Below, one piece after another: positions 7,852 through 29,373 of a DNA stretch of 32,000 nt. This DNA is from Erysipelothrix larvae (lineage in GTDB: Bacteria; Bacillota_I; Bacilli_A; Erysipelotrichales; Erysipelotrichaceae). Both the position numbers and the translations under genes were made by a program. The stretch lies in contig NZ_CP013213.1 of the NCBI RefSeq assembly GCF_001545095.1, positions 1,800,001 to 1,832,000 on the forward strand. The letters run 5' to 3'. Numbering within the stretch: position 1 is the stretch's first letter; each line of letters begins with the position of its first letter. Under the pieces are notes generated by a model, which had not been told where the DNA came from, did not search any database, and saw only the letters and a program-made list of their open reading frames with translations.

Positions 7852-7861
7852 ATACCCTTAT

Positions 7862-7888
7862 ACATTCTCATATTGGGAATGTTTTTTT
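7862..7888 (+). terminator. probable intrinsic terminator after the dipeptidase gene
   Basis: acattc ... gaatgt forms a short stem followed by T7. Confidence 0.45.
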
Positions 7889-8057
7889 ATGCGGTTTTAA
7901 TTTGATGGGACCATCACTATAAACACGCACTTTTCACAGTATGTGTGTACACATTCAAAACACGTCAACATCAGGTAGATATCGACTGCTTCGCTTATTA
8001 TTCGCACAATTTGTATTCTAACACTTTAGGCTATGCCACACCATGAAATCTCGATTA

Positions 8058-8094
8058 TTCACATGGTGATTCAAAATTCTATCACTTATTTCAC
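8058..8094 (+). promoter_or_regulatory. conserved 37-nt element (TTCACATGGTG...TATCAC.TATTTCAC), copy upstream of the LPXTG gene
   Basis: 31 of 37 positions are identical to 11614-11650, and nearly identical to 16315-16351, both upstream of the Mga-like regulator copies. It lies 188 nt upstream of the 8282 start codon. Confidence 0.35.
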
Positions 8095-8281
8095 AGAGAT
8101 TTCTCATTGAGTTTAACCCATATCATTTTTACGGGCATTATAACAACCTTTTATACGAATAAGTAAGGTGCATGCGTGTTTCAGATAGGTCCATATTGTA
8201 CTCACATATAAACTTAGGTACGATAGGTGTATAAGGAATCTTTATCCATGGGTTTATATCGGATAAAGATAGGGAGGGACT

Positions 8282-9586
8282 ATGAAACATAGACTGAAAT
8301 TGTATTGTTTTTATATCATTGCTGTATGCACGTTGTGCTTATGTGTGTTCTTTAGTTTACCTACGTATGCAGACGATACTTCATCTGAAATTCCACAAAC
8401 ACTCACAGATATCAAAGAGGCTTGGGTCGAAGATATTACGCGTAACAGTGCAAAGTTTGTTGTGACAGCTGTGGATGAAACACTGGATTATAAAGTACAG
8501 TGGCAACAGTATAATGGGACACAATGGGATGACATACCCAATGCAACAACCCCAACATATGCACTCACAAACTTACCATCTAATACAAGTGTTTCGGTTC
8601 GGGCGAAGATGTTTGTGTCCACAACCAAGACGATTGCTCCAGATGAGAACGAGTATATTTTTTATGGGTCACTTGTGCTTTGGGATACTGACGATGATGG
8701 TTGCAGTGATGTCATGCCTGCGGAAATTGAAGAAAGCATGGGGGACTCAAGTGATGAAGTCATCCTAAGAAATGCGATCCAGGTGCTTCAAGAATCACCT
8801 ACAGACAGTAATATCTATGTTTGGAACGGAGCAACGAATCATCATGATTATAGAGCATGGTGTAAAGCAACATTAGTGTACCCAAATGGTGGCTTGGCGA
8901 TTCCAGCGGATGAAGTTGATGCGTATAAAACCTTATCAACAGTTACAACGCGTGAAAGTATTTCACCTACATTAACCTTTACAACATTAATTGATCCAAA
9001 TACATATATACCAAAAATAGATACGATTGAAACTAAAACAATCACGGATAACAGTGCAACCATCAACGCATCAACCAAGGATATCATTGATGATTTAATC
9101 TATGAGTGGCAAATGCTTATTGATGGTTCATGGAAAGTCATCGATGGTGAAACATCATCAACACTATCGCTATCTAACTTAACAGATGATACTTCATATA
9201 CAGTAAAAGTAACAATCACAAATCCGTTGAATAACGAAACAACTTCAAAGGAATATACGTTTAAAACACTACCAAAGGCAGTTAGTGAATGTAAGTGTGA
9301 GGCCACACCGAAACCTGCTGAACCAGCACCAGTTAAGCCTGCTGAACCAACGCCAGTTAAACCAGTTGAACCAACACCAACAGATCAATCAACTCAACAG
9401 GATAATACACAGCGTACATCAACTCAACAACTTCCCGCAACATCTGGGACAAACACACCTATTAAGACCCCAGCTCAAGAACTTCCAAACACTGGACAAC
9501 ACCACATATTCATGCCGATTGGCTTCGTTTCACTTTGTGTTGGATGCTTCTTAGTGGGATATCTTCGATTCAAACGAAATCAATAA
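8282..9586 (+). CDS. LPXTG-anchored cell-wall surface protein with two Fn3-like repeats and a Pro-rich stalk
   Basis: It has an N-terminal signal peptide and two related modules of about 90 aa (ITRNSAKFVV... and ITDNSATINA...). A PKPAEPAPVKPAEPTPVKPVEPTP stalk follows. The C-terminus has LPNTG, a hydrophobic segment and RFKRNQ. An AGGGAGGG ribosome binding site lies upstream. Confidence 0.85.
   Translation: MKHRLKLYCFYIIAVCTLCLCVFFSLPTYADDTSSEIPQTLTDIKEAWVEDITRNSAKFVVTAVDETLDYKVQWQQYNGTQWDDIPNATTPTYALTNLPSNTSVSVRAKMFVSTTKTIAPDENEYIFYGSLVLWDTDDDGCSDVMPAEIEESMGDSSDEVILRNAIQVLQESPTDSNIYVWNGATNHHDYRAWCKATLVYPNGGLAIPADEVDAYKTLSTVTTRESISPTLTFTTLIDPNTYIPKIDTIETKTITDNSATINASTKDIIDDLIYEWQMLIDGSWKVIDGETSSTLSLSNLTDDTSYTVKVTITNPLNNETTSKEYTFKTLPKAVSECKCEATPKPAEPAPVKPAEPTPVKPVEPTPTDQSTQQDNTQRTSTQQLPATSGTNTPIKTPAQELPNTGQHHIFMPIGFVSLCVGCFLVGYLRFKRNQ
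9313..9384 (+). repeat. three 24-bp tandem repeats encoding the P(A/V)EP(A/T)PVK stalk
   Basis: The units are cctgctgaaccagcaccagttaag, cctgctgaaccaacgccagttaaa and ccagttgaaccaacaccaacagat. Confidence 0.7.
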
Positions 9587-9608
9587 TTCGTCATACTTCA
9601 ATCAGTGA

Positions 9609-9634
9609 AAAACACTCCTTAAGGGAGTGTTTTG
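9609..9634. terminator. bidirectional terminator shared by the convergent LPXTG and cupin genes
   Basis: aacactcc ttaag ggagtgtt forms the hairpin, flanked by an A-run on one side and a T-run on the other. It overlaps the last codons of the cupin gene. Confidence 0.6.
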
Positions 9635-10098
9635 TATGCTAAGCGTTTAATCACGGATTCATGGTGTGGATAGTCTTCAAGGAGCATATCCTGTGTAAAG
9701 AGTTCAAATGCTGTATAGTCAAACCCTGGGGATACCATACAACTTACCAATGCATAATCATGATCAACCGATGATCCAAAGATTGTGCCTTTAGGAACCA
9801 CAAACTGTAGTGTTTCTCCATTTTCAATGTCTTTACCCAACCGTATTTCGTCATAGGTGCCATCAGGATAAATACAGTGAACACTTAAAGGTGCACCATC
9901 ATGATAGTACCAGGTTTCATCCGCATCCAGTCGATGAAAGTGTGAGGGTGAATCGGGTGTGAGTAAAAATAAGATGTTTGTATAATAAGCCCGTCCATTC
10001 TCAAAAGTTTCATTCGAACGGCTTGTTTCCTTATAGTATCCCCCTTCTGTATGGGGTTGTAATTCAAGTGTTTGTATCCATGTATCAATTGTTTTCAT
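9619..10098 (-). CDS. DUF985-type cupin domain protein
   Basis: The sequence from MKTIDTWIQTLELQPHTEGGYYKETS onward matches the DUF985 cupin pattern. The ATG at 10098 is preceded by GGAGGAAACA. The longer track ORF has no ribosome binding site. Confidence 0.75.
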   Translation of the reverse strand: MKTIDTWIQTLELQPHTEGGYYKETSRSNETFENGRAYYTNILFLLTPDSPSHFHRLDADETWYYHDGAPLSVHCIYPDGTYDEIRLGKDIENGETLQFVVPKGTIFGSSVDHDYALVSCMVSPGFDYTAFELFTQDMLLEDYPHHESVIKRLAYKTLP

Positions 10099-10135: not shown

Positions 10136-11485
10136 TTATGACTGGTGTGTCTTGAGTTCATGAAAGAAATCGTAAATTCGACCAATATCCGAACCAACAA
10201 GATAACTGCTGACCGTGACTTTAGGTTGTTCTACCTTATAAGGAAAGTCACAGGTAGATATAATCCCCATGCACTGATGACGCCAGTAGAAATCCAGAAA
10301 CCCATTCATCTCAGGTGCACGGTATGTAACATCTCCTTCATAAACATGATAAGTGTTTAATGGAAAATTTGTGCCAAGGTGTGCCTTGAGTGCATAGGCA
10401 TGATCACGACTGATATCGCTATAGATCATGACATTTAATGAGTGCGGTTGGTCTAGTGACGGTTGAATTGAATCAATGTTAAAGATTAAGTTTGCGAATA
10501 CATGTTCGTAGTCTTCAGACATTTTGGATAGGATTGCTTCAATGCGCTCTTTATGCATTTCAAACTTCTTACGATTAATCCGTGAGTAGTTTTTTACATA
10601 GTAAAGCACGGAATGTAAGTTAACATTGTTGACGGAATAAATAACATCACGCATGTATAAGATATGACATAGAATGGTAGAGACTTGCCCATGCTTTGTG
10701 TCATCAAAGACATATCCCATATCTTGAAGTGCATCCATGAGCTCTTCAAAATGATCTTCAATACGTGCATGCATTTTATCAAGTGCCTTAATGTATCGAA
10801 TGATTATTTCTTGTGACTCTTCTTCAAGTGTCAACACTGTTTCACAATCATTCAAGCGATATCCTTGCCTATAACGCATTGCAGAGGATTCCTCAAGGCT
10901 TTTTAAGAAGTAACGAAACTTAGAGCTTATCGAAAAGTATGGTTCAACCTTAGGGCTATAAACAATGTTTATCTTAGGCAGCATGAAGTTGCGTTGGAAA
11001 CTATCATAGAATGAAGCAATAAAGAATCGTACTTTATCTTCTTCACCAATAATCTCATAACTTAAACGCTTATCATTAAGCTTCACTTCATAGTGTCTTA
11101 AGATATCGTCAAGATCACACATCAACTTACGCGTTGATTGTGGACTCTTATTGATTTCATTTGCATAGAAATCAATAGGCATGTTTGGCCTTTCAATAAT
11201 CAGTCGTAATAGTCTTGTTCTTGGTTGACACGCAATAATGTTTTCATAGATAAATTGAATATTCCCAACAGAGGTATGACTGGATACAATGTTAGAATGA
11301 CTAAAGTCTAATTCAATTAAATCATTGTAGTTATCAATTAAATAATAGATATCGTTATATACTGTTCGTTCCACACACTGATTCACTGCAGCAATCTCTG
11401 CAATTGATATCACACGATCGTTTTTAATGAGTAAATCTAAAATATTCGCAAGACGATATACTTGCTTCTTGTACTTCAAAAGCAT
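10136..11485 (-). CDS. Mga-like / HTH-domain transcriptional regulator (full-length copy)
   Basis: 449 aa from the ATG at 11485, with GGGAGGAACATATT upstream. The N-terminal HTH reads YRLANILDLLIKNDRVISIAEIAAVNQCVERTVYNDIYYL. Its size and layout resemble stand-alone Mga/AtxA-type regulators. The family assignment is by eye only. Confidence 0.6.
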   Translation of the reverse strand: MLLKYKKQVYRLANILDLLIKNDRVISIAEIAAVNQCVERTVYNDIYYLIDNYNDLIELDFSHSNIVSSHTSVGNIQFIYENIIACQPRTRLLRLIIERPNMPIDFYANEINKSPQSTRKLMCDLDDILRHYEVKLNDKRLSYEIIGEEDKVRFFIASFYDSFQRNFMLPKINIVYSPKVEPYFSISSKFRYFLKSLEESSAMRYRQGYRLNDCETVLTLEEESQEIIIRYIKALDKMHARIEDHFEELMDALQDMGYVFDDTKHGQVSTILCHILYMRDVIYSVNNVNLHSVLYYVKNYSRINRKKFEMHKERIEAILSKMSEDYEHVFANLIFNIDSIQPSLDQPHSLNVMIYSDISRDHAYALKAHLGTNFPLNTYHVYEGDVTYRAPEMNGFLDFYWRHQCMGIISTCDFPYKVEQPKVTVSSYLVGSDIGRIYDFFHELKTHQS

Positions 11486-11650
11486 AATATGTTCCTCCCT
11501 TTTAAGCGTCTCATTGTATAAGCATTCGACCCACATCAAATACTTACCCAAATGACCACCCACAGGATATATGCTAACATACGAGCTAAAAGAGACCTAG
11601 CAATCCATGTGCTTTCACATGGTGGTTCAAGTACCTATCACCTATTTCAC
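11006..11650. repeat. 645-bp direct repeat, copy A (5' half of the regulator gene plus 165 bp upstream)
   Basis: It aligns base for base with 15707-16351 at a constant offset of 4701 bp. I saw no indels and roughly ten substitutions by eye. Confidence 0.9.
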
Positions 11651-11794
11651 GTGGCTTTCATAATTGATATAAACAGTATGTTTCATCAAGTTAGTTTTCA
11701 GGGAATAATTTAAAAGTGCCAGGAACTGTAACAGTAAATATCATCGTTTTTAATTGATCTCTCAAAACTAGAATACTTTCGTTATTAACATTAT

Positions 11795-12829
11795 CTAAAG
11801 AAGAGAAACCGATGCTTTTATATACTTAAATGCTTCTGAGTCGATTTTCTTCACTCTATTTAAATTTGCATATATTGTTCCATGAGGAATCAGCTCTTCT
11901 ACATCAATTGTATCAATATAACTCAAATCCAAATCATGTCGAATCATCGATGCTATATAGAGCACTTTACTCACATGAGGAATTGCTTTTATTCTTGAAT
12001 AACTACCAAATATATGAGTGCCAATTTTTTTTATTCCACCTTTAAGTTCCTTATAAAATTGTGATTTATCATAATGAGCGCCATCACTTAGTATTGAAAT
12101 ACATGCTTCAATTGTATCATTTAAACAATCCTGAAAATCTATATCCAGCCTCCGATATTTAATTTGTATTTTTGAATATTCGTAATACGCTCGTTTTACA
12201 ACTTCAAAATCTTCAATATGATCAAACAATACCGCAACATCATGCATTTGCTTAATTATTTCTAGATCTTTTCCACTATTATATAACACTCCAATTGTAT
12301 TTGGAGCAAAAGCTGACAGTTTATCAGCAATCATATAGTCTACAATTGGAACTTTTACGTATGAAGGTGGATCTTCTGTGATATGCAATGAATTTTTGAT
12401 TTCAACTAACTTGGTGTCAATAAAATCGTCATCTTCAAAAACAACATCTAAAATAATATTTGATGGTGTATTACTTATTATTGAGGTATATTCAAATTTA
12501 AAATGTCTCTTCTCAATTCCGTTATTCCTTCTTCTATGATGCTCAACACAACTCTCAAAAGGAAAAAGTTTGCCTGCCTCTGTTATAAACTCATCAATAT
12601 CTGTATCAGCATTTACCATGATATCAATATCTGTTGAGAATCTTCTAGGATTATCAAGAAAAAGTAGCAGACAGGTTCCACCTTTGAATACAAAGTCGAG
12701 ATTTACATCAACGAGCGATTGTAATAAACCAAATGCAAAAAGCACCCTTTCGAAAATTGCTTTATCGCCTCCATATTCTTTTACCATATTTTCCAAGTGT
12801 TCCTGTGAATAGTTACTTTTTGATATCAT
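11795..12829 (-). CDS. abiEii: AbiEii/AbiGii-family nucleotidyltransferase toxin (type IV TA)
   Basis: FVFKGGTCLLLFLDNPRRFSTDIDIMV matches the GG-x(n)-D-x-D pol-beta-type NTase motif of the DUF1814/AbiEii family. It lies directly downstream of an AbiEi-like gene. The first ATG is at 12829. The track ORF starts at a TTG at 12865, so the start is uncertain. Confidence 0.8.
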   Translation of the reverse strand: MISKSNYSQEHLENMVKEYGGDKAIFERVLFAFGLLQSLVDVNLDFVFKGGTCLLLFLDNPRRFSTDIDIMVNADTDIDEFITEAGKLFPFESCVEHHRRRNNGIEKRHFKFEYTSIISNTPSNIILDVVFEDDDFIDTKLVEIKNSLHITEDPPSYVKVPIVDYMIADKLSAFAPNTIGVLYNSGKDLEIIKQMHDVAVLFDHIEDFEVVKRAYYEYSKIQIKYRRLDIDFQDCLNDTIEACISILSDGAHYDKSQFYKELKGGIKKIGTHIFGSYSRIKAIPHVSKVLYIASMIRHDLDLSYIDTIDVEELIPHGTIYANLNRVKKIDSEAFKYIKASVSLL

Positions 12830-12836
12830 AATATTT

Positions 12837-13516
12837 CTACTTGTCCCTATGAATATGTTGATCAACTATGTTCTGCTTATTACGACGCAATGAATATCTA
12901 TTTAACGTCGCATAGTCAATAATGTAGCGCTCCATCATGGAGTCTACAATTTGTTGATACTCACTTTTATTTATAATCTCTTTGATATATTTATTAGCAA
13001 ATAAATCAACAATCAGTTTTTCAATAACTATTTTGTTACTGTCGTTCTTGTTACTAATGGTTTCACTAATAAGATTAAGGACAACAATTAAATTGTTAGT
13101 TAAAACTTGATTGAATGTTTTTACATCCGGTTTGAGTAAAACATTCCCTTCATTTTTTTCCTTAATACTTTCAAATATAAACTCTTCGTATCCTTTTTCA
13201 ACTTCTACAAAAATTACATTAGTCGTTAATTGATGATTTAGGAATTCATTTAGCATTCTTAGTTCCCATATTTGAAATTGGATTTCATCAAAATCAAATA
13301 GCACCTCATCTAGTATTTTTTTGCTTGCGTTGATAATTCATATTCAAATCGACGTTGATTGCTAGTGCTAGATTTTACATATTTATTACGTCCAATACGA
13401 GTAATTTCATTCTCTTTCACTAACTTATACAAGATCCAAGAAATACTGTTTTTCTTAATGTCACCAAATCCGTCAATATATCGTCGATTAATCTCTGTTC
13501 TACTAAAAGGTTCCAT
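12837..13516 (-). pseudogene. abiEi: AbiEi-like antitoxin split into 68-aa (wHTH) and 155-aa ORFs by a frame change at an A7 tract
   Basis: The N-terminal ORF has the AbiEi/DUF6088-like wHTH pattern (ISWILYKLVKENEITRIGRNKYV). It ends ...GCA AAA AAA TAC TAG at 13310-13324. The -1 frame reads through as AKKILDEVLFDFDE into the 155-aa ORF. Together they would make about 225 aa, which is the expected size range for AbiEi. Confidence 0.55.
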
Positions 13517-13596: not shown

Positions 13597-13911
13597 TGTA
13601 TTTGTTAATCTAAAAAAAACGGCAATTTTAATACATTTTTGCCGTTTAATTATGATAGAGGAAGTTACATAAATTTATCTACTAGAAACTCAAAGTACAT
13701 TTTTTGTGTTTGTATATTTGGTAGTCAATGACTACTTTGGATTGACAACAACTTCTTCGTAAAGCATTAATAGACCGTATACCGATTCCAATACACATTT
13801 GTGATATCACCTCTTTCACCTCCAAAAGCATTATCACACACTTCTGAAGTTATAAAAATAGTGGACCAGTTTTCAATTGAGAATTGGCCCACTTTTAGAT
13901 TAACAAATACA
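13597..13911 (-). mobile_element. 315-bp MITE-like derivative of the IS21-family element
   Basis: 13796-13911 is identical over 116 bp to the istA-proximal end of the intact IS (30820-30935). The opposite terminus, tgtatttgttaatctaaaa at 13597-13615, is a perfect 19-nt inverted repeat of that end. The interior has no transposase. Confidence 0.6.
13617..13647 (-). terminator. hairpin aaacggcaa/ttgccgttt followed by T8 on the minus strand
   Basis: 9-bp GC-containing stem with a 13-nt loop, and a T8 run when read on the minus strand. Confidence 0.5.
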
Positions 13912-14003
13912 TCTTGTACTTCAAAAGCATAATATGTTCCTCCCTTTTAAGCGTCTCATTGTATAAGCATTCGACCCACATCAAATACTTACCCAAATGA
14001 TCA
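13912..14003. repeat. third, 92-bp copy (B) of the regulator promoter/5' end, truncated at codon 7 by the IS21 terminus
   Basis: It matches 11467-11558 and 16168-16259. It shares the gatca variant with copy C. It abuts the IS terminus ...aacaaataca at 13911. Confidence 0.85.
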
Positions 14004-14290
14004 TTTCGTCAAGAATATATTCAAAGTATGATTGAATATCAAGATTGTTTAGCTTTGCAGTTTCTACGATGCTATAGTAGATTGAACTCATTTGTGCATC
14101 ATTCTTTGTGTTAGAGAATAAAAAGTTCTTTTGTCCAATTACAAATGGTTTGATTGCATGTCTGCTCGATTATCGTGAGTTCAAGACGACCATCCAAGAA
14201 ATAGTTTCTAAGATATATTTCGTTGTTGATTGTGTGAGTTATTGCGACACCCATCTATGCGACTACGCTTCCCTTTGGTTCTTAGCCAAT
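14002..14290 (-). pseudogene. IS66-family transposase C-terminal fragment (frameshifted, truncated)
   Basis: Hand translation gives ...NNEIYLRNYFLDGRLEL, then after a frameshift HAIKPFVIGQKNFLFSNTKNDAQMSSIYYSIVETAKLNNLDIQSYFEYILDEM. This matches the conserved LDDGRLEIDNN..ER.IRPFVIGRKNWLFS block of IS66 transposases. Confidence 0.6.
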
Positions 14291-14381
14291 TTGATTGGGG
14301 TAACTACTCCCATTATTTAATATGTATATTCAAAGTTCTCATATAATGGTATACTATATTAAAATAAAAAAGAGGTGTAAT

Positions 14382-15278
14382 ATGTCAAATATAAGTGTTT
14401 TTAACACAAGTGATGAGAATAACATTAGACAGCTAGAGAGTACTTCCTATTCACTTGAATCACATTTGCAAAAACTAATTGAAAGAAATATGAAATCATT
14501 CTTTTCAGTAGATTTTTTAGCAAGCGAATACTCTTTTCCTAGTGGTAGAATTGACAGTCTTGGAATTGACGAAAACAACTGTCCTGTTATATTTGAATAT
14601 AAACGAAGTATGAATGAGAACGTTATTAACCAAGGTCTTTTCTATTTAGAATGGTTACTTGATCATAAAGCTGATTTTAAACTTCTAGTATTGGATAAAT
14701 ACGGAGACAACAGAGCTAATGCAATAGAATGGAAGACACCAATTGTGTATTGTATTGCAAACAATTTCAACAAATATGATGTAAATGCAGTTAAAATTAT
14801 GCAAAGAAATATTTATTTGGTGGAGTATAATCTTTTTGAAAATGATCTGATTATATTTGATTTCCTAAACTTAGATTCTAAAGTCAAAGAAGTAGGCAAT
14901 GATTTAATAATTGATAAATCAAAAAAAATGCAGCGAGATATTAATGATAGAATGAACACACTGAATAGTAATTTAAAGCCAATCTTAGAAGATTTACGAT
15001 CCTTCATTAGTGAAATAGGTGACGATGTTTCTGAAGTAGTTTTACGTCAATATATTGCTTATAAAAAGATTGGTAACTTTGTTACGATTGATATGACAAA
15101 TGATAAAATTCAAATGTATCTGAAAGTTGACCCTTCTGAAATTGAACTTAAAAATAATATGAGAGATATGACTAAAATCGGACATTTTGGTACTGGAAAC
15201 TTAGAAATAATAATTACATCAATAGATGACTATTATAACTCGAAATACTATATTGAATTAGCATATAATCAAAACTAA
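14382..15278 (+). CDS. NucS/DUF91-like PD-(D/E)XK nuclease domain fused to a DUF5655-like C-terminal domain
   Basis: The nuclease core GRIDSLGIDENNCPVIFEYKR (D...E-x-K) is followed by a QGLFY (QxxxY) motif. The C-terminus has a GHFGTGNLEIII block typical of DUF5655. The ATG at 14382 is preceded by AAGAGGTG. Confidence 0.65.
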   Translation: MSNISVFNTSDENNIRQLESTSYSLESHLQKLIERNMKSFFSVDFLASEYSFPSGRIDSLGIDENNCPVIFEYKRSMNENVINQGLFYLEWLLDHKADFKLLVLDKYGDNRANAIEWKTPIVYCIANNFNKYDVNAVKIMQRNIYLVEYNLFENDLIIFDFLNLDSKVKEVGNDLIIDKSKKMQRDINDRMNTLNSNLKPILEDLRSFISEIGDDVSEVVLRQYIAYKKIGNFVTIDMTNDKIQMYLKVDPSEIELKNNMRDMTKIGHFGTGNLEIIITSIDDYYNSKYYIELAYNQN

Positions 15279-15391
15279 TTCAATGTATTTAGAATTACCA
15301 AAATGTTACAAACTCTAATTAGGTTTCTAGCTTTCAGGATGCAATTTATATAATTCTGATAAATAGGTTGTGGAAGCCAATTCCTAGAATC

Positions 15392-15670
15392 TTAAGTTAC
15401 GGTACTCACTAGAATTTCTAGTGAGTACTTTTTATTATTTCCAAACTTACCATAGTATTACAAATTAAGAGATCTCTTGTTCTAAAATTTTCAAAACTTC
15501 GATAACCGTAGGCAACCCGTTTTATCACTTTGTTTAAATTGTTTGTCCCTTCTAAGCGACCAATAGAGTATGGATACTTTAGTGCGTTTGAGACAGATAC
15601 TTCATATTCTTTTTACGTCTTAATTAATTTCTTCATCTGTTTCGATATGTTCTTAGGTGGATATATTTAG
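15392..15670 (-). pseudogene. ISL3-family transposase C-terminal fragment
   Basis: Hand translation gives ...SNALKYPYSIGRLEGTNNLNKVIKRVAYGYRSFENFRTRDLLI. This matches the ISL3 C-terminal consensus SNG.LEG.NN.IK.IKR.AYGYRNF.NFR.RIL. There is an in-frame stop upstream and no N-terminal part. Confidence 0.6.
15402..15433 (+). terminator. strong intrinsic terminator after the NucS-like gene
   Basis: gtactcactag aattt ctagtgagtac forms an 11-bp perfect stem followed by T5. Confidence 0.7.
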
Positions 15671-15706
15671 AATCTCTATGAGTGTGGTGATGTTGTCTTA
15701 TTACGG

Positions 15707-16351
15707 ATAGAATGAAGCAATAAAGAATCATACTTTATCTTCTTCACCAACAATCTCATAACTTAAACGCTTATCATTAAGCTTCATTTCATAGTGTCTT
15801 AAGATATCATCAAAATCACACATCAACTTACGCGTTGATTGTGGACTCTTATTGATTTCATTTGCATAGAAATCAATAGGCATGTTTGGCCTTTCAATAA
15901 TCAGTCGTAATAGCCTTGTTCTTGGTTGACACGCAATAATGTTTTCATAGATAAATTGAATATTCCCAACAGAGGTATGACTGGATACGATGTTAGAATG
16001 ACTAAAGTCTAATTCAATTAAATCATTGTAGTTATCAATTAAATAATAGATATCGTTATATACTGTTCGTTCCACACACTGATTCACTGCAGCAATCTCT
16101 GCAATTGATATCACACGATCGTTTTTAATGAGTAAATCTAAAATATTCGCAAGACGATATACTTGCTTCTTGTACTTCAAAAGCATAATATGTTCCTCCC
16201 TTTTAAGCGTCTCATTGTATAAGCATTCGACCCACATCAAATACTTACCCAAATGATCACCCGCAGGATATATGCTAACATACGAGCTAAAAGAGACCTA
16301 GCAATCCATGTGCTTTCACATGGTGGTTCAAGTACCTATAACCTATTTCAC
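15707..16351. repeat. 645-bp direct repeat, copy C
   Basis: Partner of 11006-11650 at an offset of 4701 bp. Confidence 0.9.
15728..16186 (-). pseudogene. truncated duplicate of the Mga-like regulator (HTH-containing N-terminal 152 aa only)
   Basis: It has the same ribosome binding site, ATG and N-terminal sequence as 10136-11485, with a few substitutions (for example CDLDD to CDFDD). The reading frame ends a few codons inside the repeat boundary at 15707. Confidence 0.8.
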
Positions 16352-16449
16352 ATTTCAATCATATTTCGTAAGTAATGTTAATCATTCCAGCAAGCATTAC
16401 AAACCATAGAAGTAAAGCAATGTCCATTCACTTAAAAAGTGTTATGGAA

Positions 16450-16510
16450 CAAAAAAGTCAAATTGACCTAACACTTTAACTAAGTATTTTGGATTAATTT
16501 GACTTTTTGC
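16450..16510 (-). terminator. possible terminator downstream of the 618-aa gene
   Basis: A 13-bp inverted repeat aaaaagtcaaatt/aatttgacttttt has a T-run on the minus strand. The loop of about 32 nt is unusually large. Confidence 0.35.
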
Positions 16511-16546
16511 TGTAAAACTTACTGGTATTAACTGACGTATAACAAT

Positions 16547-18403
16547 TTATTGACCTGGTAAGGGAATTATAATTCTCTCGGCAATTTCTTTTAAATGAAC
16601 ATATTTTTCAAAGGATTGAGTATTAAAAACCTGACCCAGATTCGTTAGTATACTAATTGCCTCCAATAATAAATTTGTCAGTTCATCTTCACTATACACA
16701 AAAGCTCTTTCCTCAATTGAATCAAACACAACACTTGATTCAACATTCTTATAATTAATTGATTTAAATAGTTTAGGATATAACAATTTTTCTTCTTCAA
16801 ATCTAAAGAGTTCTGTTTTGAAAACATCATAAAACGCACCACATAACCAACTCAACATATTTGGTAGCTCATTATTATGATAGTATTGACTATTCGAATT
16901 CATGATACGTAGAATTGTGTAGAAATCACCTTTATTAAATGTTCTATAGAAGTTTTTCAAATATGAGAAAAGATTTATTGCATAATCAAATTGCGTAGCA
17001 TTAAGACAATAATCGACTAGAAAGTTATTAAATAATGTTAGCTCAGCTACACCTACAAACTGGTCCCGAATAACAAGAAGATCTTCCGCATCAAATACGC
17101 AGTAAATAGAAATGTCGGAGAAGTTTTTGCTACTAAGATAGTAGTTACTTCTTAATTTTGAAATCAAATCTAAATGCGTATCAATTGATGACGATAAAAA
17201 CACACATCTTGCACGTAAACTTACTTGTTCTTTAGCCAAATTAACATTTTTACAAGTTAACTTATAGTACTCACAATTTTCTAAATCTTCGTCAAAGAAC
17301 ATAATCTTAACACATTCAGAAACTAATGTTTTGGTAGAATCGGGTAATACATCAAATACGGATGGATAAGACTGGAAAAATTGAACAAATTTAAACATCC
17401 TACTCTCACGCTTATAGTTTGCAATGACCATAAAACTTATTTCATTGGCATCCTTTTTATCAGAAAAAGATTTAATTGTTTCAGGTTGAAGTTTATTTCG
17501 TAGATACTCATCTTCAATTAACAGATTAGTGTACCTGCTCTTATCTTCTTCAAATAAGTAACATAAAGCAAAATAATTTGCCTCCCTATTAAGTTTGCAA
17601 TCATTATCATCAAGCACAAATGTAAATTTACACAAAGTCTTGAAAAGCTTGTCCTTAATTTTTTGAGTCATCCTTTTGAAGAATTTATCCTCAACAAATT
17701 CTCGAAAGCCTCTTGTATTTAAGCGCTTATAATATTCATTCGTCTCACTTACGAAAAAATTAATTACATCTTTCCCAAGTATAGGATCACGTAAGAACAC
17801 TATTTCAAAAGCCTTACGAATCAAATCTATTGCTGTTTCTTTTGTTATTTCCTTTAAAACAACATTTTCTTCTATAGAGTAGATTGGGTGTGCAGCATAA
17901 TTCCTACATTTTTTTAAGTACATAAGCTCTTCTTTTTCCACATTTGAGAGCAGTTCTGTTTTCTTTGCTATTTCATCAAGTAGAGTTCCTTCCCACTTAG
18001 AACTAGTAATGTTTTTTTTCCTTTCCTCGTCGATACAAAGTAAAATTTCTTTTGCATTATTTATTTTATTATCATTTTTGTTATCATTTTTGTTATCATT
18101 TTTGTCATCATTTTTGTCATCATTTTTGTCATCATTTTTGTCATCATTTTTGTCATCATTTTTGTCATCATTTTTATTATCATTTTTGTTAGCATTTTTG
18201 TTAGCATTTTTATTATCATCATAGACATCACTAAGTATAACAAGTTTTTGAAGCAAATCATAAATTAACGTTGTGTATAAGACTACTACAGTTGCCCTAT
18301 AATTTCCATTATTATAACATGACAATACTTCTTTTAACTTGTCCTTAGTATTCGCATTACTTACATTTTCTATTTCCAAATCAACTTTGAATACACTCAT
18401 CAT
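16547..18403 (-). CDS. large orphan protein with an N-terminal HEPN-like domain (RNxxxH), an internal (N/D)-K tetrapeptide repeat, and about 430 aa I cannot assign
   Basis: 618 aa. AGAGGGGGA lies 5 nt upstream of ATGATG. The helix LKEVLSCYNNGNYRATVVVLYTTLIYDLLQKL is followed downstream by LKKCRNYAAHP, which is the canonical HEPN R-N-x-x-x-H motif. I see no other motif. Confidence 0.6.
   Translation of the reverse strand: MMSVFKVDLEIENVSNANTKDKLKEVLSCYNNGNYRATVVVLYTTLIYDLLQKLVILSDVYDDNKNANKNANKNDNKNDDKNDDKNDDKNDDKNDDKNDDKNDNKNDNKNDNKINNAKEILLCIDEERKKNITSSKWEGTLLDEIAKKTELLSNVEKEELMYLKKCRNYAAHPIYSIEENVVLKEITKETAIDLIRKAFEIVFLRDPILGKDVINFFVSETNEYYKRLNTRGFREFVEDKFFKRMTQKIKDKLFKTLCKFTFVLDDNDCKLNREANYFALCYLFEEDKSRYTNLLIEDEYLRNKLQPETIKSFSDKKDANEISFMVIANYKRESRMFKFVQFFQSYPSVFDVLPDSTKTLVSECVKIMFFDEDLENCEYYKLTCKNVNLAKEQVSLRARCVFLSSSIDTHLDLISKLRSNYYLSSKNFSDISIYCVFDAEDLLVIRDQFVGVAELTLFNNFLVDYCLNATQFDYAINLFSYLKNFYRTFNKGDFYTILRIMNSNSQYYHNNELPNMLSWLCGAFYDVFKTELFRFEEEKLLYPKLFKSINYKNVESSVVFDSIEERAFVYSEDELTNLLLEAISILTNLGQVFNTQSFEKYVHLKEIAERIIIPLPGQ
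18071..18214. repeat. 12 tandem copies of a 12-bp unit (atcatttttgtY) inside the 618-aa ORF
   Basis: There are six perfect atcatttttgtc units, flanked by variants (gtt, att, agc). They encode NANK/NDNK/NDDK tetrapeptides. Confidence 0.9.
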
Positions 18404-18779
18404 ATCCCCCTCTATTACATTACTAAATAAATCTACTAATTCTAATCCAAAAAATAAAAATCAAAGCGAAGATAGATATTCAAAACCAACTCATGAATTT
18501 AGAATATACTGCATTATATATTCATCCAGATAAATGAAATCTAATCGTATATACTAACATTAACGGATTCATTAATCAAAACCCATATAATGTAGTTAAC
18601 TTTAATGCAGTAAAAGAATCTACTATAATCATATTCAATAATGTATTTATAATGTTATCATAACATTTCGTGAAATAGTTAACAATGATGGTTATTGGAA
18701 TATCGCGCAAAAAAGGAGTGGAGATTCAAAAAAATGGAATTATTTGCTATATTTTAAGGATTTTTTTGATATCGTCACA

Positions 18780-19375
18780 AAGTGTGTTTAATTAATGTGT
18801 TTCGTAAAGAAGTTTGATTTGATGATAAAGATTTGAACAAATAAGCATAACCATATCTATCATGTTTTGAACATTTCAAAATCCATAACTCTTTCTTATC
18901 AAAATCTTGAATTTGTTGTTCATTGATTTAATGTGTGCATGTGAGAGCTAATGCCCTACAGTTTTGATGAATGAGTCATAGTGCCTTTTATCTTTTTGTT
19001 TAGAATCACAAATGGAGGAATACAACAACAACTAGCCCATGATAACCATTTCTTTAATTTTGTTTCTACATTCTCAAAATCTGATTTAAACTGTGGCTTA
19101 AATGCTTTTTTGTAAGAAACTCCTTAAACAGTTTTGGATAATCAATTCGTATTGCATCCTTAGTTGATTGTTGTTTTTAGTTTACTTCTCTGGTTTTTAA
19201 TCTAGTGGGTATCCAAGACCTTTGATCTCAATCACTGGCTTCTAATATACAACTTCTCTACCTCTATACCTCCAAATGCATATTCCCACTTCTGATGTTA
19301 TATAAATATTGGACTCATTTCCAACGACAATACACTGCTAAAGTTTACCACATTTAATGTGCAACAAACATGACA
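18780..19375 (-). pseudogene. degenerate second IS21-family element end (istA 5' region with many stops, plus a diverged terminal repeat)
   Basis: 19262-19375 is a diverged homologue of the intact IS end: acctccaaatgcat...cacttctgatgttata.aaata.tggac...aacaaacatgaca compared with 30841-30935. The region upstream of it translates only in broken frames (for example VIEIKGLGYPLD*). Confidence 0.4.
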
Positions 19376-19378
19376 CAT

Positions 19379-19416
19379 AAAAAAACGGCAATTTTTGTTC
19401 GTTTTTGCCGTTTTTT
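19379..19416. terminator. bidirectional hairpin aaaacggcaa/ttgccgtttt with flanking A- and T-runs
   Basis: It has the same stem sequence as the hairpin at 13617-13647. It lies immediately outside the degenerate IS21-like terminus. Confidence 0.5.
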
Positions 19417-19672
19417 ATGAAAGTGACAGTTATCTCAAACTCGTTTTATTGAACTATATTTTCATTAATCTGACGATACTACAATTTCAAGTTTTATTTA
19501 AATTGTGATTTCGCTGTCATAGTGATTTTTGAATTAGTGTGCATTATTTTCTTATGTTAGTGTTAATGCTAAAGTTCTTGCTTTAATATTGCTGGTTCTA
19601 AGATATCAAACTAACAATTGAATCTGTTAGTATATTATTTCTTTTTTTTGTGTTTTGAATTCAATTTTGATT

Positions 19673-20111
19673 TTATGAACGCTGAGCATACATCTGAGAG
19701 AGAGAGATCCCAATGCCTTCCTTATAATTGAACCCAAGGAGCTGCATAGTCTTAAGGGTATCTTTATTGAGTAGTTGTATCAACATTGTTATCAACTGAT
19801 TTGTATCTTCAGTTTGAGGTGCAAAAAAGTTGAGAATTTTAATTAATTGCTCAAGAGTGTTATGTAGGTATTCAATATTCTCATCACTAATCACTACATT
19901 ATCTAATTGCTGTTTATAATCTCTTGCTATCGTAATTAGTTCTTCTTTATCTGTGAGTAAGTTATTAACTATTTCCTATATGTAAGGGATTGATCCTCAA
20001 GATTTTTTTCTGTTTTGCTGTCTCCATTTTTGTACTAACAAAACTAATAGTATTACTAGAAACAACATCAGCAAAAGTAATACCTAATTGAATTAATTGA
20101 TCATCCATCAT
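19673..20111 (-). pseudogene. small hypothetical gene in two frames (48-aa N-terminal ORF plus 73-aa ORF)
   Basis: A strong AGAGGAG ribosome binding site precedes ATGATG at 20111. Frame 1 stops at 19965. The second frame is open from 19975 to 19673 (EIVNNLLTDKEELITIARDY...). I recognise no family. Confidence 0.3.
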
Positions 20112-20906
20112 AAAATCTCCTCTTTTTAGTTGAGTTATAGCAAATAATCTTACCTTATGAAAGTTCAGTGATTAATTTTGGAATTAACCCAATAGTATCT
20201 TATAATTGATCTATTTAGAACATTATGAAAGTCACTGCGAAAAATATGAAAAAACGTATAACTACTGTTATTGGAATTAGAATGAAAGATTATGCATAAA
20301 CTCACGAATAACAACTTTCTTACCTTCTCGTAGAAGAATACTTCAAACCAAGGATAGCATATGTTGAGACACTCTTGAAGTGTTAATGCTTAAAATGATT
20401 GCTAACAAAGCAAGCATAGCTGTACCAACAGCATCTAACTTGAACTATTAGATTCAATTCATAAAAATACGAAATTTAATCAAACAACCCTTATCGGTGA
20501 AATTTTAACTTGTGTTGCAATTTATACAAATAATGGGCAAAGACGGATATGTGATAGATTTCTAAAGCTGTCAATATTAGCTCCTTTCATCACTTTATTT
20601 GAGGACTGCTCCCCTACTTATGTTGAGCATCCAAATCTTTTAGTATTATCATAATACATAGGTTAAAATTTATATCGCACACCAAACATAGAAGAACTAG
20701 AGGCATTGTCGTTAAAGCCACGAAAACAAAAGAGCTACTATTCAGAAAGGAGCTCGAAAACAGAAACTGAACTAGAAGAATAAAAATAGGATTAAGATAT
20801 ACTAAATGTAACTTGATAACATAATTTAATTGAGTTTATGATGGAAAATATAGCAATAATATGCCATAATCAATTTAACCATAAACTTTTTGAGTAGGAG
20901 AGAAAG

Positions 20907-23117
20907 ATGACAACACAAATTGACCTTAAGCTTGTGAATATAGGCCCACATAAAACTATAGACTTTAGTAAAACCCTAAATAATATGAGAATTTCGATAT
21001 ATGCAAGAAATGGTGCAGGAAAAACATTCATCAGCCGATGTTTCAATGTATTTGCAATGAAACTAGAGGACAGAAATGAATATTCAAAAATTCTACTTAG
21101 GTATGGACAACAATCTGGAAATTTCTCATTTAACATTGGAAGTAATAGCGCAAGCTTCCGTTTAAGCAATAATGGAATTGATAATTGTCAAAACCTTTTA
21201 GACCGCAAGTTCCATGTTTTTAACAATGATTATATTATTGAGAACTTCAGCGAAAAAGAGTTTATTCCTAATAGTAATATCGAAGGAATTGTGCTAGGAA
21301 AAGGAAATATTGATCTATCTTCTGAAAAGAGGATGCTCAACTCACTTTTAGATGAGGGAAATTCGCTTAGATCAAAAATAGAAGAAAATATAGTAGAGGC
21401 AAAATCAAATCTTAAAAAGTACAAAATTTCAAACTCTTTAACTAAGTGTAAGGATATAAATTACACTAATATAATTGAATACAAACCAACAGATGTAGAC
21501 TATAGTGTTGAGGTGGGAAAATATTCTGAACTTTCGAGTTTACCTGATGATATCCGTGACTTTAGATTAGATGATAGAATTTCTGATATTGGGATAGAAA
21601 TAAGTGACCTTAAAAATCTGTTGAAAACAAAGTATACTTTGAATAAATTTGAAGCTGATTTTAGGGAATATGTAAAAACAAATTTAAAGTTTATAGAGTT
21701 GGGACTTAAATTACATGAGGGTAACAATTGTCCATTTTGCAAACAGAATCTATCCGACAATGCCTTTCAATTAATTAATCAATATGTTCAATTTGTTAAC
21801 GATGAAGAAACAAAGGTTAACAAAATGTTAATAGCATATTTCGATAAGTTTGAAGAGATAAGAAGACATATTGATGAATATTATCGATATTTAGGAGAGT
21901 TCGAGGAGAGAATCAGATATTACAACCAATTTTTTGGGCCATTTGACTTAACAAGTATTGTTTCACTAAAAACTCATATTGATGAGTGGAAAGACTTAGC
22001 AACTATGATTTTGGAAAGAGTAAAGTCTAAGAAGCAAAATATCACTCTTGATTTTGACAGCACTGACATAACTAATGAGATTATAGATAAATTAGCTAAC
22101 AATATTAAGCAAATTAACATGAGCTTATCTGAATTTAACATAAAAAAGAATAACATAGCAAAACTAAAAACAGAGTATAGAAGATCAATTTGTGAAGGTT
22201 TATTCAATAAACTTCACTCTGAAAACAGGAAACTAATTGATAGAATAGTTGTTCTTCGCAAAAATACCTTTGACCTTAGAAGTTTAATTTTAGAAAAGGA
22301 AAACACGAATCAATCCAATAAAAAAGATTTAGTAGCAAATGACTTAGAAAAATACTTATTTCAATTTTTCAGAGATAAGTACGTTCTAAATAAAGATGAT
22401 TTTACTTTAACATTAAAAGAATATAATATTAATACAAGTTCAAATAAGGCCCTCAGTGAAGGAGAAAAGAGTATACTTGCATTTTGTTATTTTTTAGCAA
22501 GCATTCATGAGGTTGTCAGTGATACTGAAGAGTATAATAAAATAATTCTTGTAATAGATGACCCAGTATCAAGTATGGATATCCAATATACATATCAACT
22601 TGTTGCTTTGCTAAAGAACTATCAAAAAGATATTGAAGGGTTTCAATTGAAGTTTATAATGCTTACTCATAATTTAGAATTTTTTAATATTTTATCAAGA
22701 AACAATTTATCTAAACATAAGTTAATCTTGGAAGATGGATTGGATGAATATAAAAATGAGATTTTAATGCCTTATGATTATCATTTATATGACGTGTGGT
22801 CAGTTGCAAAAGGGAAAAAGCTACCAAGTCATACCACTCCCAATTCTATTAGACATATTATTGAAACAATTGCACAATTTTGCGGTTATGGTGATAAAAG
22901 CTCAAGTTTGTATAATATGATTTGTGAGAAAGAACAACTAAACCAAAATTTAGAAATTTATACATTTATGCAGGACTTATCTCATGGGAACTTTAGATTA
23001 GATACTGCGTACACTTCGGATGTATTAAAAGAAGGAGCTGTCGCAGTTATAAATTACGTCACAAAAGAATTCCCAAAGCAACTGATTCAATTTAGTAATG
23101 AAAGTAATCAAAGCTAA
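20907..23117 (+). CDS. RloC/PrrC-like AAA_13 ABC-type ATPase with a coiled-coil/CxxC zinc hook and a C-terminal anticodon-nuclease-like motif
   Basis: ATPase motifs: Walker A ARNGAGKT, signature LSEGEKS, Walker B/D-loop LVIDDPVSSMD and H-loop LTHN. A long K/E-rich insert between them carries NCPFCKQ. The C-terminus has NSIRHIIETIAQF (R-x3-E) followed 40 residues later by LSHGNF. An AGGAGAG ribosome binding site lies upstream. Confidence 0.7.
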   Translation: MTTQIDLKLVNIGPHKTIDFSKTLNNMRISIYARNGAGKTFISRCFNVFAMKLEDRNEYSKILLRYGQQSGNFSFNIGSNSASFRLSNNGIDNCQNLLDRKFHVFNNDYIIENFSEKEFIPNSNIEGIVLGKGNIDLSSEKRMLNSLLDEGNSLRSKIEENIVEAKSNLKKYKISNSLTKCKDINYTNIIEYKPTDVDYSVEVGKYSELSSLPDDIRDFRLDDRISDIGIEISDLKNLLKTKYTLNKFEADFREYVKTNLKFIELGLKLHEGNNCPFCKQNLSDNAFQLINQYVQFVNDEETKVNKMLIAYFDKFEEIRRHIDEYYRYLGEFEERIRYYNQFFGPFDLTSIVSLKTHIDEWKDLATMILERVKSKKQNITLDFDSTDITNEIIDKLANNIKQINMSLSEFNIKKNNIAKLKTEYRRSICEGLFNKLHSENRKLIDRIVVLRKNTFDLRSLILEKENTNQSNKKDLVANDLEKYLFQFFRDKYVLNKDDFTLTLKEYNINTSSNKALSEGEKSILAFCYFLASIHEVVSDTEEYNKIILVIDDPVSSMDIQYTYQLVALLKNYQKDIEGFQLKFIMLTHNLEFFNILSRNNLSKHKLILEDGLDEYKNEILMPYDYHLYDVWSVAKGKKLPSHTTPNSIRHIIETIAQFCGYGDKSSSLYNMICEKEQLNQNLEIYTFMQDLSHGNFRLDTAYTSDVLKEGAVAVINYVTKEFPKQLIQFSNESNQS

Positions 23118-23629: not shown

Positions 23630-24516
23630 TAAATGTTAATATAAAAAATAGTTTTTTTATCATATAAGAATGTAGGAAAACCAACATTTTTATATGAGAT
23701 TTTTGTCGCTTTCCTCCTTTTCGATACTTCCCATTTTTTCCTTCATTCGGTATGACGGACCCTTAATATTTATAATATGTGAGTGATGAAGGAGTCGGTC
23801 AAGTAGTGCGTTTGTAAGCGTTAGATTCTGGAATATATCACCCCATTTACTAAAAGGTGTATTTGTCGTTATGATCGTACTATGCTTCTCATATCGCTTA
23901 GCTGTCAATTGAAAAAACAGGTTCGCTGCCTCAGTATCCATTTCTAAATAGCCCAGTTCATCAATGATTAACACCTTATATTTTACAAAGAATTTCAATC
24001 GCGTTTCGAGTCTGTTCTCATAGTTGGCCTTTTTCAGTTGATTAATTAGTTCTTCAAAAGTTATGAAGTATGTTGAGAAGTGCTTAATAGCAGATGCAAT
24101 TCCAATTGCAGTTGCTAGGTGTGTCTTACCTGTTCCTGGTGTCCCAACAAAAATAATATTCTCCTTGTTTTCAATAAATCGAAGCGAAACTAGATCTATA
24201 ATTTGCTTTTTACTAACACTAGGCTGAAAATCAAATTCATAGTCTCTTTCAGTTTTAAGGTATGGAAAATTACTGACCTTCACCCAAGAGGTAATTGCAC
24301 CTTCGTCTCTGAATGACATCTCTTTTTCGCTGAGTTCATAGAGTGCTTGTGCGAATGTCATATCATTTCGATTGACTCTATCGGAATATTCATCGAAATT
24401 CTCAATCATTTTGGTGAGTCCTAAATCTTCTAAGTTGTTAATCAATTTTGCAGTCACTTAATTTGTTCCTTTCGTAAGCCTTTAAATCTTGCTATACTTC
24501 TGTAATCAATGTGCAT
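23630..24516 (-). mobile_element. truncated IS21-family element retaining only istB and about 60 nt of the istA 3' end; boundaries approximate
   Basis: An intact istB-like ORF starts with a GTG that overlaps a TGA (GTGA) closing a 20-codon ORF remnant (MHIDYRSIARFKGLRKEQIK). No istA body lies upstream. Confidence 0.5.
23690..24457 (-). CDS. istB: IstB-like ATP-binding transposition helper (orphan)
   Basis: 255 aa with Walker A GTPGTGKTHLA and Walker B VLIIDELGY. It shows overall similarity to the IstB at 28616-29362. Confidence 0.85.
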   Translation of the reverse strand: MTAKLINNLEDLGLTKMIENFDEYSDRVNRNDMTFAQALYELSEKEMSFRDEGAITSWVKVSNFPYLKTERDYEFDFQPSVSKKQIIDLVSLRFIENKENIIFVGTPGTGKTHLATAIGIASAIKHFSTYFITFEELINQLKKANYENRLETRLKFFVKYKVLIIDELGYLEMDTEAANLFFQLTAKRYEKHSTIITTNTPFSKWGDIFQNLTLTNALLDRLLHHSHIINIKGPSYRMKEKMGSIEKEESDKNLI

Positions 24517-28615: not shown

Positions 28616-29362
28616 TCATTCTTTGCTCTTTAGCCAAGCAATTGTTTCTTCAACACGATAACTCTCTCCACTCATATTTAATAGATGTGATTTATAGGTT
28701 AAGCGGTCGACTAGAGCAGTTGTTAGAATGGGATCTTTGAATATTTCTTCCCATCTATCAAACATTAAATTTGTTGTAATAATCATAGAGCCCACTGTTA
28801 TTCTATTTGAGATTAGATTGAATAGAATTTCACTTCCTTCTTTATCAAATGACACATAGCCGAGTTCATCAAGAATTACTAGATCAAATTTTTCAAACTT
28901 CTTTTTGTATTGCGTAATTTGATTTTTTGACATAGCTTCTTTTAACTCTATAATTAGATTAGGAACGCTGATAAATAGCACTTTTTTATTTTCTAGACAA
29001 GCTTTGATTCCAAGTGCGGTCGCATAATGTGTTTTTCCCATTCCAGGATTACTCATTAAGATAATGTTTTCTTTATTTTCTATAAAGTTCAATGTTTCCA
29101 GTTCTTTAAACTTTCGTTTTAATTCTGAATTAAATTTTACAGTCGTAAAATCCTCCAATGTCTTGTTTTGAGGAAATCGAGCAGCACGAATGCGTTGTTT
29201 TATTCCGTTGTCACGACGATTGTTTCGTTCGCAATAAAGCAGTTCGTTAAGAAATTCTTGAAAATCCAATCCTTTGTGTTTCGCTTCCTGTATTGCTGCT
29301 TCATAGTGTGTTTTTATGAATGAAAGTTTTAATTCTTTTGACAATTGTTCAATTGTTTCCAT
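28616..29362 (-). CDS. istB: IS21-family IstB ATP-binding helper
   Basis: Walker A NPGMGKTHYA and Walker B LVILDELGY. It lies 11 nt downstream of istA. Confidence 0.9.
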   Translation of the reverse strand: METIEQLSKELKLSFIKTHYEAAIQEAKHKGLDFQEFLNELLYCERNNRRDNGIKQRIRAARFPQNKTLEDFTTVKFNSELKRKFKELETLNFIENKENIILMSNPGMGKTHYATALGIKACLENKKVLFISVPNLIIELKEAMSKNQITQYKKKFEKFDLVILDELGYVSFDKEGSEILFNLISNRITVGSMIITTNLMFDRWEEIFKDPILTTALVDRLTYKSHLLNMSGESYRVEETIAWLKSKE

Positions 29363-29373
29363 TAATTTTTCTC

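Follow-up and report, generated by a model that had tools for sequence, protein, structure and literature searches.

The window analysed here is a stretch of 32,000 nucleotides (nt) from the genome of Erysipelothrix larvae (contig NZ_CP013213.1, positions 1,800,001 to 1,832,000), and the gene in question lies on its minus strand at 16547..18403 (coordinates are those of the window throughout). It encodes a protein of 618 amino acids (aa), which we assign, based on its open reading frame (ORF), a PADLOC match and a profile comparison with Protein Data Bank (PDB) entry 9wxf, to the long form of the DARNA/PD-T7-3 family of phage defence proteins. A preliminary description, made from the letters of the DNA alone, had presented this ORF as a gene that looks well expressed, with a ribosome binding site; the ORF and the binding site are borne out, and the strand, absent from that description, can now be added. 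The reading frame is intact over 618 codons and the family-invariant residues are all kept. The mRNA 5′ of the ORF reads AGAGGGGGA-T-ATG-ATG, the ribosome binding site (18405..18413, minus strand, read from the sequence) lying 1 nt 5′ of the first ATG and 4 nt 5′ of the second. Because homologues align from the second methionine, the ATG at 18400 may be the real start, in which case the protein has 617 aa. About 40 nt past the stop codon there is a terminator-like hairpin followed by a U-run (16449..16510, minus strand; folding energy of the RNA −27.6 kcal/mol, z = −3.58 relative to shuffled sequences), which was missed by a simple terminator scan that needs a GC-rich stem, and the gene therefore looks monocistronic. 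No co-oriented gene is present within the 2.5 kb upstream, a region with neither an ORF longer than 73 aa nor a Pfam match, and long-form homologues likewise have no conserved neighbour. Thus, the gene stands alone without an operon partner, as previously described. A promoter scan did not rise above chance (23 sites against 17.7±3.8 expected) and no promoter is claimed.

PD-T7-3 was discovered in a functional selection in E. coli (Vassallo et al. 2022, PMC9519451). A preprint of February 2026 characterised it as DARNA and presented its mechanism and cryo-electron microscopy structures (bioRxiv 10.64898/2026.02.22.705581). According to that preprint, DARNA is a protein of 456 aa composed of a HEPN domain (aa 1-159, catalytic residues R117 and H122) and a helical Pds5-like C-terminal domain (C-domain), assembles into a homododecamer and cleaves the anticodon loop of most tRNAs. 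Its activity is triggered by single-stranded DNA (ssDNA) of at least about 30 nt with several CT motifs, which the phage's ssDNA-binding protein (SSB) leaves accessible and that of the host sequesters. The CT motif is read by F368, D372, N402, Q403, Y405, W406 and N408; D372 makes cytosine-specific contacts and the W406A substitution inactivates the protein. An α4-loop-α5 element (loop 81-85) occludes the active site (bioRxiv 10.64898/2026.02.22.705581).

The PADLOC model of PD-T7-3 (PDLC04108) matched the E. larvae protein with E = 3.1e−65 (219 bits, three stretches) and was the sole PADLOC family retrieved at E ≤ 10. In phmmer searches the protein matched PDB entry 9wxf with E = 9.2e−22, and a profile of 33 homologues matched the same entry with E = 7.3e−68, the alignment covering residues 10-259 and 264-419 of the 460 in the chain. 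The same profile retrieved 9wx2 (E = 2.4e−39) and 9wwz (E = 1.1e−23). In the PDB sequence entries 9wxf is called ‘Dandelion’ (460 aa, 12 chains), 9wx2 ‘Dandelion-hepn’ and 9wwz is the C-terminal part. A literature search combining ‘Dandelion’ with HEPN and phage returned no relevant paper, the name being known from the PDB entries alone. Each of the 16 residues that the DARNA preprint mentions by name is found as the identical amino acid in 9wxf at a constant offset of +5, and for this reason we equate Dandelion with DARNA; the published mechanism therefore applies to the solved homologue. An exhaustive profile search, counted in representatives of 50%-identity clusters, collected 1,903 homologues at E ≤ 1e−3, 1,266 at E ≤ 1e−10 and 462 at E ≤ 1e−30.

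These results bear directly on the preliminary description, which had regarded the protein as an orphan HEPN protein founding an unassigned defence family with a novel architecture. It is true that Pfam and NCBIfam gave only sub-threshold matches to the protein, that Pfam matches of the 33 homologues were sub-threshold as well (DUF4145 in five, HepT-like in one), and that almost all homologues are unnamed hypothetical proteins. Weak matches to CDC45, CobT, EbpS and others were discarded because they stem from a low-complexity insert. Against the orphan view stand the PD-T7-3 match, the homology to solved DARNA/Dandelion over both domains, the shared domain order, catalytic motif and sensor motif, and the size of the family. 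With at least 1,266 clusters at E ≤ 1e−10, solved structures and a published mechanism, we find that view extremely improbable. It was the PADLOC scan proposed in the preliminary description that found PD-T7-3, and the claim of novelty falls since profiles place the whole protein in a named family. The remark that the architecture is unlike that of the HEPN systems named there stands insofar as profiles of ApeA, AbiD/AbiF and RnlA/LsoA gave no match at E ≤ 10 (PADLOC, Pfam), and fails in that the domain order is shared with DARNA. Based on sequence comparison, membership of the E. larvae protein in the DARNA/PD-T7-3 family is almost certain.

The N-terminal HEPN domain spans residues 1 to ~210 (17774..18403, minus strand) and consists of seven helices and a short beta-hairpin according to an AlphaFold 2 model, Foldseek and homology to 9wx2. 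The model of this domain has a mean predicted local distance difference test score (pLDDT) of 81.6 and a predicted template modelling score (pTM) of 0.75. Its top Foldseek match is the HEPN protein 2hsb (probability 0.99, target-normalised TM score 0.68), followed by 2q00 (0.69) and the HepT toxins 6m6u, 6m6w and 5yep; seven of the 15 matches are HEPN proteins, all E-values being 0.35 or weaker. The proposed comparison of a predicted structure with Foldseek thus returned the HEPN fold, and together with the homology to 9wx2 it upholds the assignment of an N-terminal HEPN domain; the proposed profile search succeeded in part, through 9wx2 and not through Pfam. The amphipathic helix LKEVLSCYNNGNYRATVVVLYTTLIYDLLQKL (residues 23-54) and the segment LKKCRNYAAHP (residues 163-173) are both present as described. 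The latter contains the catalytic motif R167-N-Y-A-A-H172 (17888..17905, minus strand), which corresponds to R117/H122 of DARNA and is aligned to R122/H127 of 9wxf. Its R, N, A and H are invariant in all 33 homologues. It is the only R-x4-H in the protein, as had been noticed before, and a dimeric active site is therefore implied. Three of the four RNA-contacting positions of DARNA are basic (R98, K201 and K204 correspond to K148, K252 and K255), and the dodecamer-interface residues F6 and N33 are kept as F5 and N32. The occluding loop of DARNA (81-85) corresponds to residues 131-135, which have equal length (NITSS vs DPYSP) and lie between predicted helices 109-130 and 136-148.

The remaining ~430 residues, which had been considered unplaceable and possibly a sensor domain, turned out to be homologous to the Pds5-like ssDNA-sensing domain of DARNA; placement is thereby gained and the sensor proposal strengthened. 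This all-helical C-domain covers residues ~211-618 (16550..17773, minus strand), as defined by profile alignment to residues 160-419 of 9wxf and to 9wwz, with pLDDT mostly above 85. The AlphaFold 2 model of the full-length protein (pLDDT 82.3, pTM 0.66) is all-helical except for residues 62-113, which are disordered. In a PDB copy that does not contain 9wxf, Foldseek retrieved for this model only generic α-solenoids (HAT, TPR and HEAT repeats, cohesin SA2) at E ≥ 0.015. Such matches to a predicted structure would fit the published Pds5-like description and are not diagnostic.

Alignments based on hidden Markov models (HMMs) allowed us to locate the base-reading residues. F472 (16988..16990, minus strand) corresponds to F368, the aromatic residue stacking on thymine in DARNA, and the segment M-N-S-N-S-Q-Y-Y (residues 501-508; 16880..16903, minus strand) to the base-reading loop N401-N402-Q403-C404-Y405. 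For the C-domain, the result of globally aligning the protein with the reconstructed 9wxf chain in a simple pairwise manner was rejected, as F368 was placed differently there than in two mutually agreeing HMM alignments. Among the 33 long-form homologues, F368 (F472) is F or Y in all 33, N401 (N504) is kept in 33, Q403 (Q506) in 32 and Y405 (Y508) in 29. The E. larvae protein also keeps N408 (N511), and N402 is replaced in it by S505. As the long form does not conserve the positions that correspond to D372 and W406, the DNA motif read probably differs from the ‘CT’ recognised by E. coli DARNA. Judging from the sequences, the ligand patch of the C-domain is recognisably that of DARNA and its sequence specificity probably different; that the CT-ssDNA specificity is the same as in E. 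coli appears doubtful at best.

Most members of the family have 425-460 aa and are DARNA-like, and the rare long form (about 560-590 aa) accounts, with lengths counted from 550 to 600 aa, for few of the 50%-identity clusters. Compared with 9wxf, the long form is extended in three places of the C-domain: ~24 residues are added behind profile position 254, ~25 around positions 319-343 and ~65-90 at the C-terminal end, which makes about 115 aa altogether; positions ~467-574 of the 574-position profile have no counterpart in 9wxf. The C-terminal extension (residues ~530-618; 16550..16816, minus strand) carries conserved EEKxLY and IE(E/K)RA motifs and, in the alignment, is absent from the short forms of 430-460 aa. 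The best genomic relatives, searched among GTDB species representatives, are 38-43% identical and come from Eubacteriales, Filifactoraceae, Lachnoanaerobaculum, Hungatella and Gastranaerophilales.

Among metagenomic homologues, the long-form C-domain also occurs with another effector. In two of them (P0091 and P0115) it follows TIR_2, and the HEPN domain is missing. A third (P0079) consists of TIR_2, a remnant of half a HEPN domain and the long-form C-domain, and the catalytic Arg in the remnant is replaced by Lys (EKNYAAHP). The C-terminal extension is kept in the TIR fusions. This swapping of HEPN and TIR effectors gives independent support to the C-domain being a sensor. The DARNA preprint makes no mention of TIR (bioRxiv 10.64898/2026.02.22.705581). 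If conserved, sensing of ssDNA exposed by phage SSB would, as the fusions suggest, be a reusable module.

The findings could also be explained by a protein of the same family, with the same HEPN effector, in which the long-form C-domain answers to a trigger other than CT-ssDNA, namely, another sequence, another nucleic acid or a phage protein bound via the C-terminal extension. The variation at D372 and W406 across the 33 long-form sequences, the ~115 extra residues, including the conserved ~90-aa extension with its EEKxLY and IE(E/K)RA motifs, and the movement of the long-form C-domain as a unit with TIR effectors all fit this explanation. The base-reading core (F/Y472, N504, Q506 and Y508), however, is strongly conserved, which favours a related nucleobase ligand, and neither a partner gene nor a protein-binding domain was detected (Pfam, on the E. 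larvae protein and the 33 homologues). We therefore consider a changed trigger rather unlikely and prefer a DARNA-like sensor of exposed single-stranded nucleic acid.

Long-form homologues also occur as single genes, in variable regions where AbiE, Schlafen-AlbA_2, HNH, PemK and resolvase genes lie nearby. As regards the proposed test for enrichment next to defence genes, AbiE, Schlafen-AlbA_2, HNH and PemK genes are among the neighbours, and no neighbour is conserved. In two lineages the long-form gene was found directly 3′ of a TRAM/tRNA-U5-methyltransferase (RlmD-like) gene (loci L014-L017 at 8545-9957, L019 at 7834-9189 and L020 at 613-1968), and this neighbourhood may be a recurrent integration hotspot.

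The E. larvae protein has one peculiarity of its own. Within the HEPN domain, residues ~64-116 form an insert of 52 aa made of NDDK, NDNK and NANK units, the low-complexity NDDK repeat that had been reported between the helix segment and the RNYAAH motif. Its coding sequence consists of 13.0 copies of a tandem repeat with a 12-bp unit (18064..18219, minus strand; Tandem Repeats Finder, 94% matches, no indels), in which perfect central copies are flanked by degenerate ones, pointing to recent slippage; because the unit has 12 bp, the frame is always preserved. The model gives pLDDT below 50 for residues 62-113, and none of the 32 aligned homologues has the insert. It lies between DARNA residues ~64 and 67, at the α3/α4 junction and directly ahead of the α4-loop-α5 element; this element contains K69 and R98 and, in DARNA, covers the active site. 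The spacing from the invariant YR in α3 to R-x4-H is 131 residues in the E. larvae protein and 76-90 in the 202 other members (79-81 in 198), making it the one outlier of the 203 members compared. In one long-form homologue (P0036, alignment columns ~200-220) an independent N/D/K-rich insert, NENKNDKDDDKDDNQNYEF, directly follows RNYAAHP, and inserts of this kind may thus arise in AT-rich genomes as by-products that are tolerated. The insert of the E. larvae protein may be neutral, modulatory or damaging.

The damaging effect would correspond to a decaying or compromised copy, in which assembly or regulation has been lost through the slippage-made insert, the ORF surviving solely because the expansion kept the frame. 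Several observations are compatible with it: the insert is unique among the 203 members in a segment of otherwise nearly fixed length; decay abounds in the island around the gene, where regulator copies are truncated, one IS21 end is an orphan, one IstB stands alone and 2.5 kb hold gene remnants (see below); and the exact protein, of either 618 or 617 aa, is missing from a collection of about 15 billion proteins, which may filter low-complexity sequences and in which six of the seven E. larvae neighbours looked up are present, among them those with unambiguous ATG starts; an annotation choice could also account for the absence. On the other hand, the frame, the ribosome binding site and the terminator are intact, every family-invariant residue is kept, the 12-bp unit always keeps the frame, the insert is predicted to be disordered within an inter-helix loop, and P0036 tolerates a similar insert after its catalytic motif. 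Decay is thus very unlikely.

As a whole, the findings are best explained, with a probability of roughly 0.7, by a divergent long-form member of the DARNA family, a single-protein abortive-infection system working as DARNA by homology; an overall mechanism of the nucleic-acid-activated HEPN tRNase type is, by analogy, probable too. The abortive-infection type of gene proposed in the preliminary description is consistent with the homology and the island setting, the activity itself being ascribed by homology. The likeness to DARNA extends from the single gene with an N-terminal HEPN domain, one R-x4-H and an all-helical C-domain, with homology over both, to the catalytic Arg/His pair, lysines at three of the four RNA contacts, two of the three tested dodecamer-interface residues, the base-reading core of F, N-x-Q and Y, and the equal length of the loop aligned to the occluding one. 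By analogy with E. coli DARNA, the protein would form a dodecamer, be triggered by ssDNA and act as an RNase on tRNAs. In such a scenario, the N-terminal HEPN domains would dimerise, with R167 and H172 of two subunits forming one composite RNase site, and the helical C-domain would sense exposed bases of single-stranded nucleic acid, most likely ssDNA left accessible by phage SSB during replication. Binding of the ligand would free the active site from the covering α4-loop-α5 element, host tRNAs would then be cut (in the anticodon loop, if as in DARNA), translation would stop and the infection would abort.

Several points weigh against this explanation. The protein is ~28% identical to E. coli DARNA over alignable residues, its nearest relative in the collections searched is only ~40% identical, and what is known of long-form function comes, across all long-form members, from sequence and models. 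Both D372 and W406 are lost (I476 and H509) and variable across the 33 long-form homologues; of the RNA contacts, K69 is lost (E119, with K118 adjacent), and the dodecamer-interface residue E347 is not conserved. The ~115 extra residues of the C-domain have no assigned function. In addition, the insert abuts the regulatory α4 in a segment of near-fixed length and could disturb regulation or assembly. The E. larvae protein also differs from DARNA in length (618 vs 456 aa, owing to the three additions and its own repeat-encoded insert), in its Gram-positive host and in the location of its gene within a defence island, whereas PD-T7-3 was reported outside defence islands (PMC10799925).

With this assignment, an E. 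larvae ‘hypothetical protein’ and ~70 unnamed homologues, found in Clostridia and in related bacteria of the gut and mouth, join a defence family whose structure is solved and whose mechanism is known. The kind of system is not new; what deserves mention as variation is the long-form C-domain, the occurrence of TIR-fused relatives and the unique repeat insert. Comparison of the long-form clade with E. coli DARNA could show which of the ssDNA-reading parts set sequence specificity. The in-frame insert, lying beside the regulatory element, is a natural perturbation of DARNA activation, the mechanism of which the DARNA authors call unresolved. One might combine these features and propose that the long-form C-domain is a portable nucleic-acid sensor of non-CT specificity, used with both HEPN RNase and TIR NADase-type effectors, and that the N/D/K insert is a length-variable tether, sited at the base of the α4-loop-α5 element, tuning the activation threshold. 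This joint proposal is unlikely; if true, slippage could adjust the tether, which would act as a ‘gain control’ of the abortive-infection switch.

Other single-protein or HEPN-based systems resemble the E. larvae protein in part. Abortive infection by cleavage of the tRNA anticodon loop is also known from PrrC and RloC, which remain latent until a phage cue. Their mode of action is akin to that proposed here, but they have an ABC-type ATPase N-terminal domain and another nuclease domain, whereas no NTPase motif is present in the E. larvae protein. Other HEPN RNases have triggers of their own, such as cyclic oligoadenylate sensed by a CARF domain in Csm6 or the antitoxin in HepT and RnlA. At the sequence level, with PD-T7-3 as the one PADLOC family retrieved at E ≤ 10, the protein does not belong with Csm6/Csx1, HepT, ApeA, AbiD/AbiF or RnlA/LsoA, which differ from it in sensor domain and trigger. 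Finally, BxaP (ORF376) is a single-protein anti-phage factor that was found by structural similarity to PD-T7-3 and protects against T4 and T7 (Nat Commun 2024, PMC10799925). It resides in type 3 BREX loci and is described as lacking detectable sequence annotation; our comparison with it is by description only.

The gene lies in a defence island, as previously described, with a GC content of 26-33% compared with 35-41% in the flanks. Its neighbours include AbiEii/AbiEi, PDC-S18, a PDC-S06/PrrC-like ATPase and IS21 remnants, and neighbouring proteins match exactly AOC36_08330, AOC36_08375, AOC36_08385 and others. AOC36_08375, an AAA_13 ATPase of 736 aa (20907-23117, plus strand), matched PDC-S06 of PADLOC with E = 1.6e−175 and, in its C-terminal part, PrrC with E = 2e−19. 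It is a second candidate effector of the anticodon-nuclease type, 2.5 kb from the DARNA-like gene. The PDC-S18 candidate defence protein (14322-15278, plus strand; 318 aa, PADLOC E = 1.3e−111) contains NucS_C-like and DUF5655 regions. AbiEii (11795-12865) is full length, and the AbiEi ORF (12837-13304, minus strand; 155 aa, GTG start) covers profile positions 85-231 of 234, from which the antitoxin appears to be N-terminally truncated. An orphan IS21 end is located ~490 bp upstream of the AbiEi ORF.

The truncated regulator copy beside the DARNA-like gene was recognised correctly: an ORF of 174 aa (15728-16252) is 98% identical to residues 5-178 of a 475-aa Mga-type regulator (10136-11563). 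The 5′ end of the regulator gene is present in three copies (11467-11558, 13912-14003 and 16168-16259; 99-100% identity), which mark off the AbiE, PDC-S18 and DARNA-like cassettes from one another. The third of them is longer, at ~650 bp (15707-16360, matching 11006-11660), and takes in ~100 bp upstream of the regulator start. This triplication points to a single target site at which rearrangement or insertion occurred serially.

IS21 activity appears to have shaped the island. A complete IS21 element (28616-30861) comprises IstA (29374-30861) and IstB (28616-29362), and a solo IstB gene without IstA is found at 23690-24457. We had considered 29374-30861 as a paralogous regulator bounding the island and rejected this, as the ORF is the IS21 transposase IstA. 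The orphan IS21 end (13796-13911) consists of 116 nt that are 100% identical to 30820-30935, and it abuts the second copy of the regulator fragment. The claim that debris of insertion sequences (IS) directly flanks the DARNA-like gene was not upheld: 18404-20906 has no IS signature, and the nearest IS21 remnants are those at 13796-13911 and 23690-24457. A megablast search of 14000-21000 against plasmids gave no match. At 19673-20111 (minus strand), broken short ORFs share 67% DNA identity with a hypothetical gene of an Enterococcus faecium conjugative plasmid (NZ_CP096052.1) and probably represent a decayed gene rather than IS debris.

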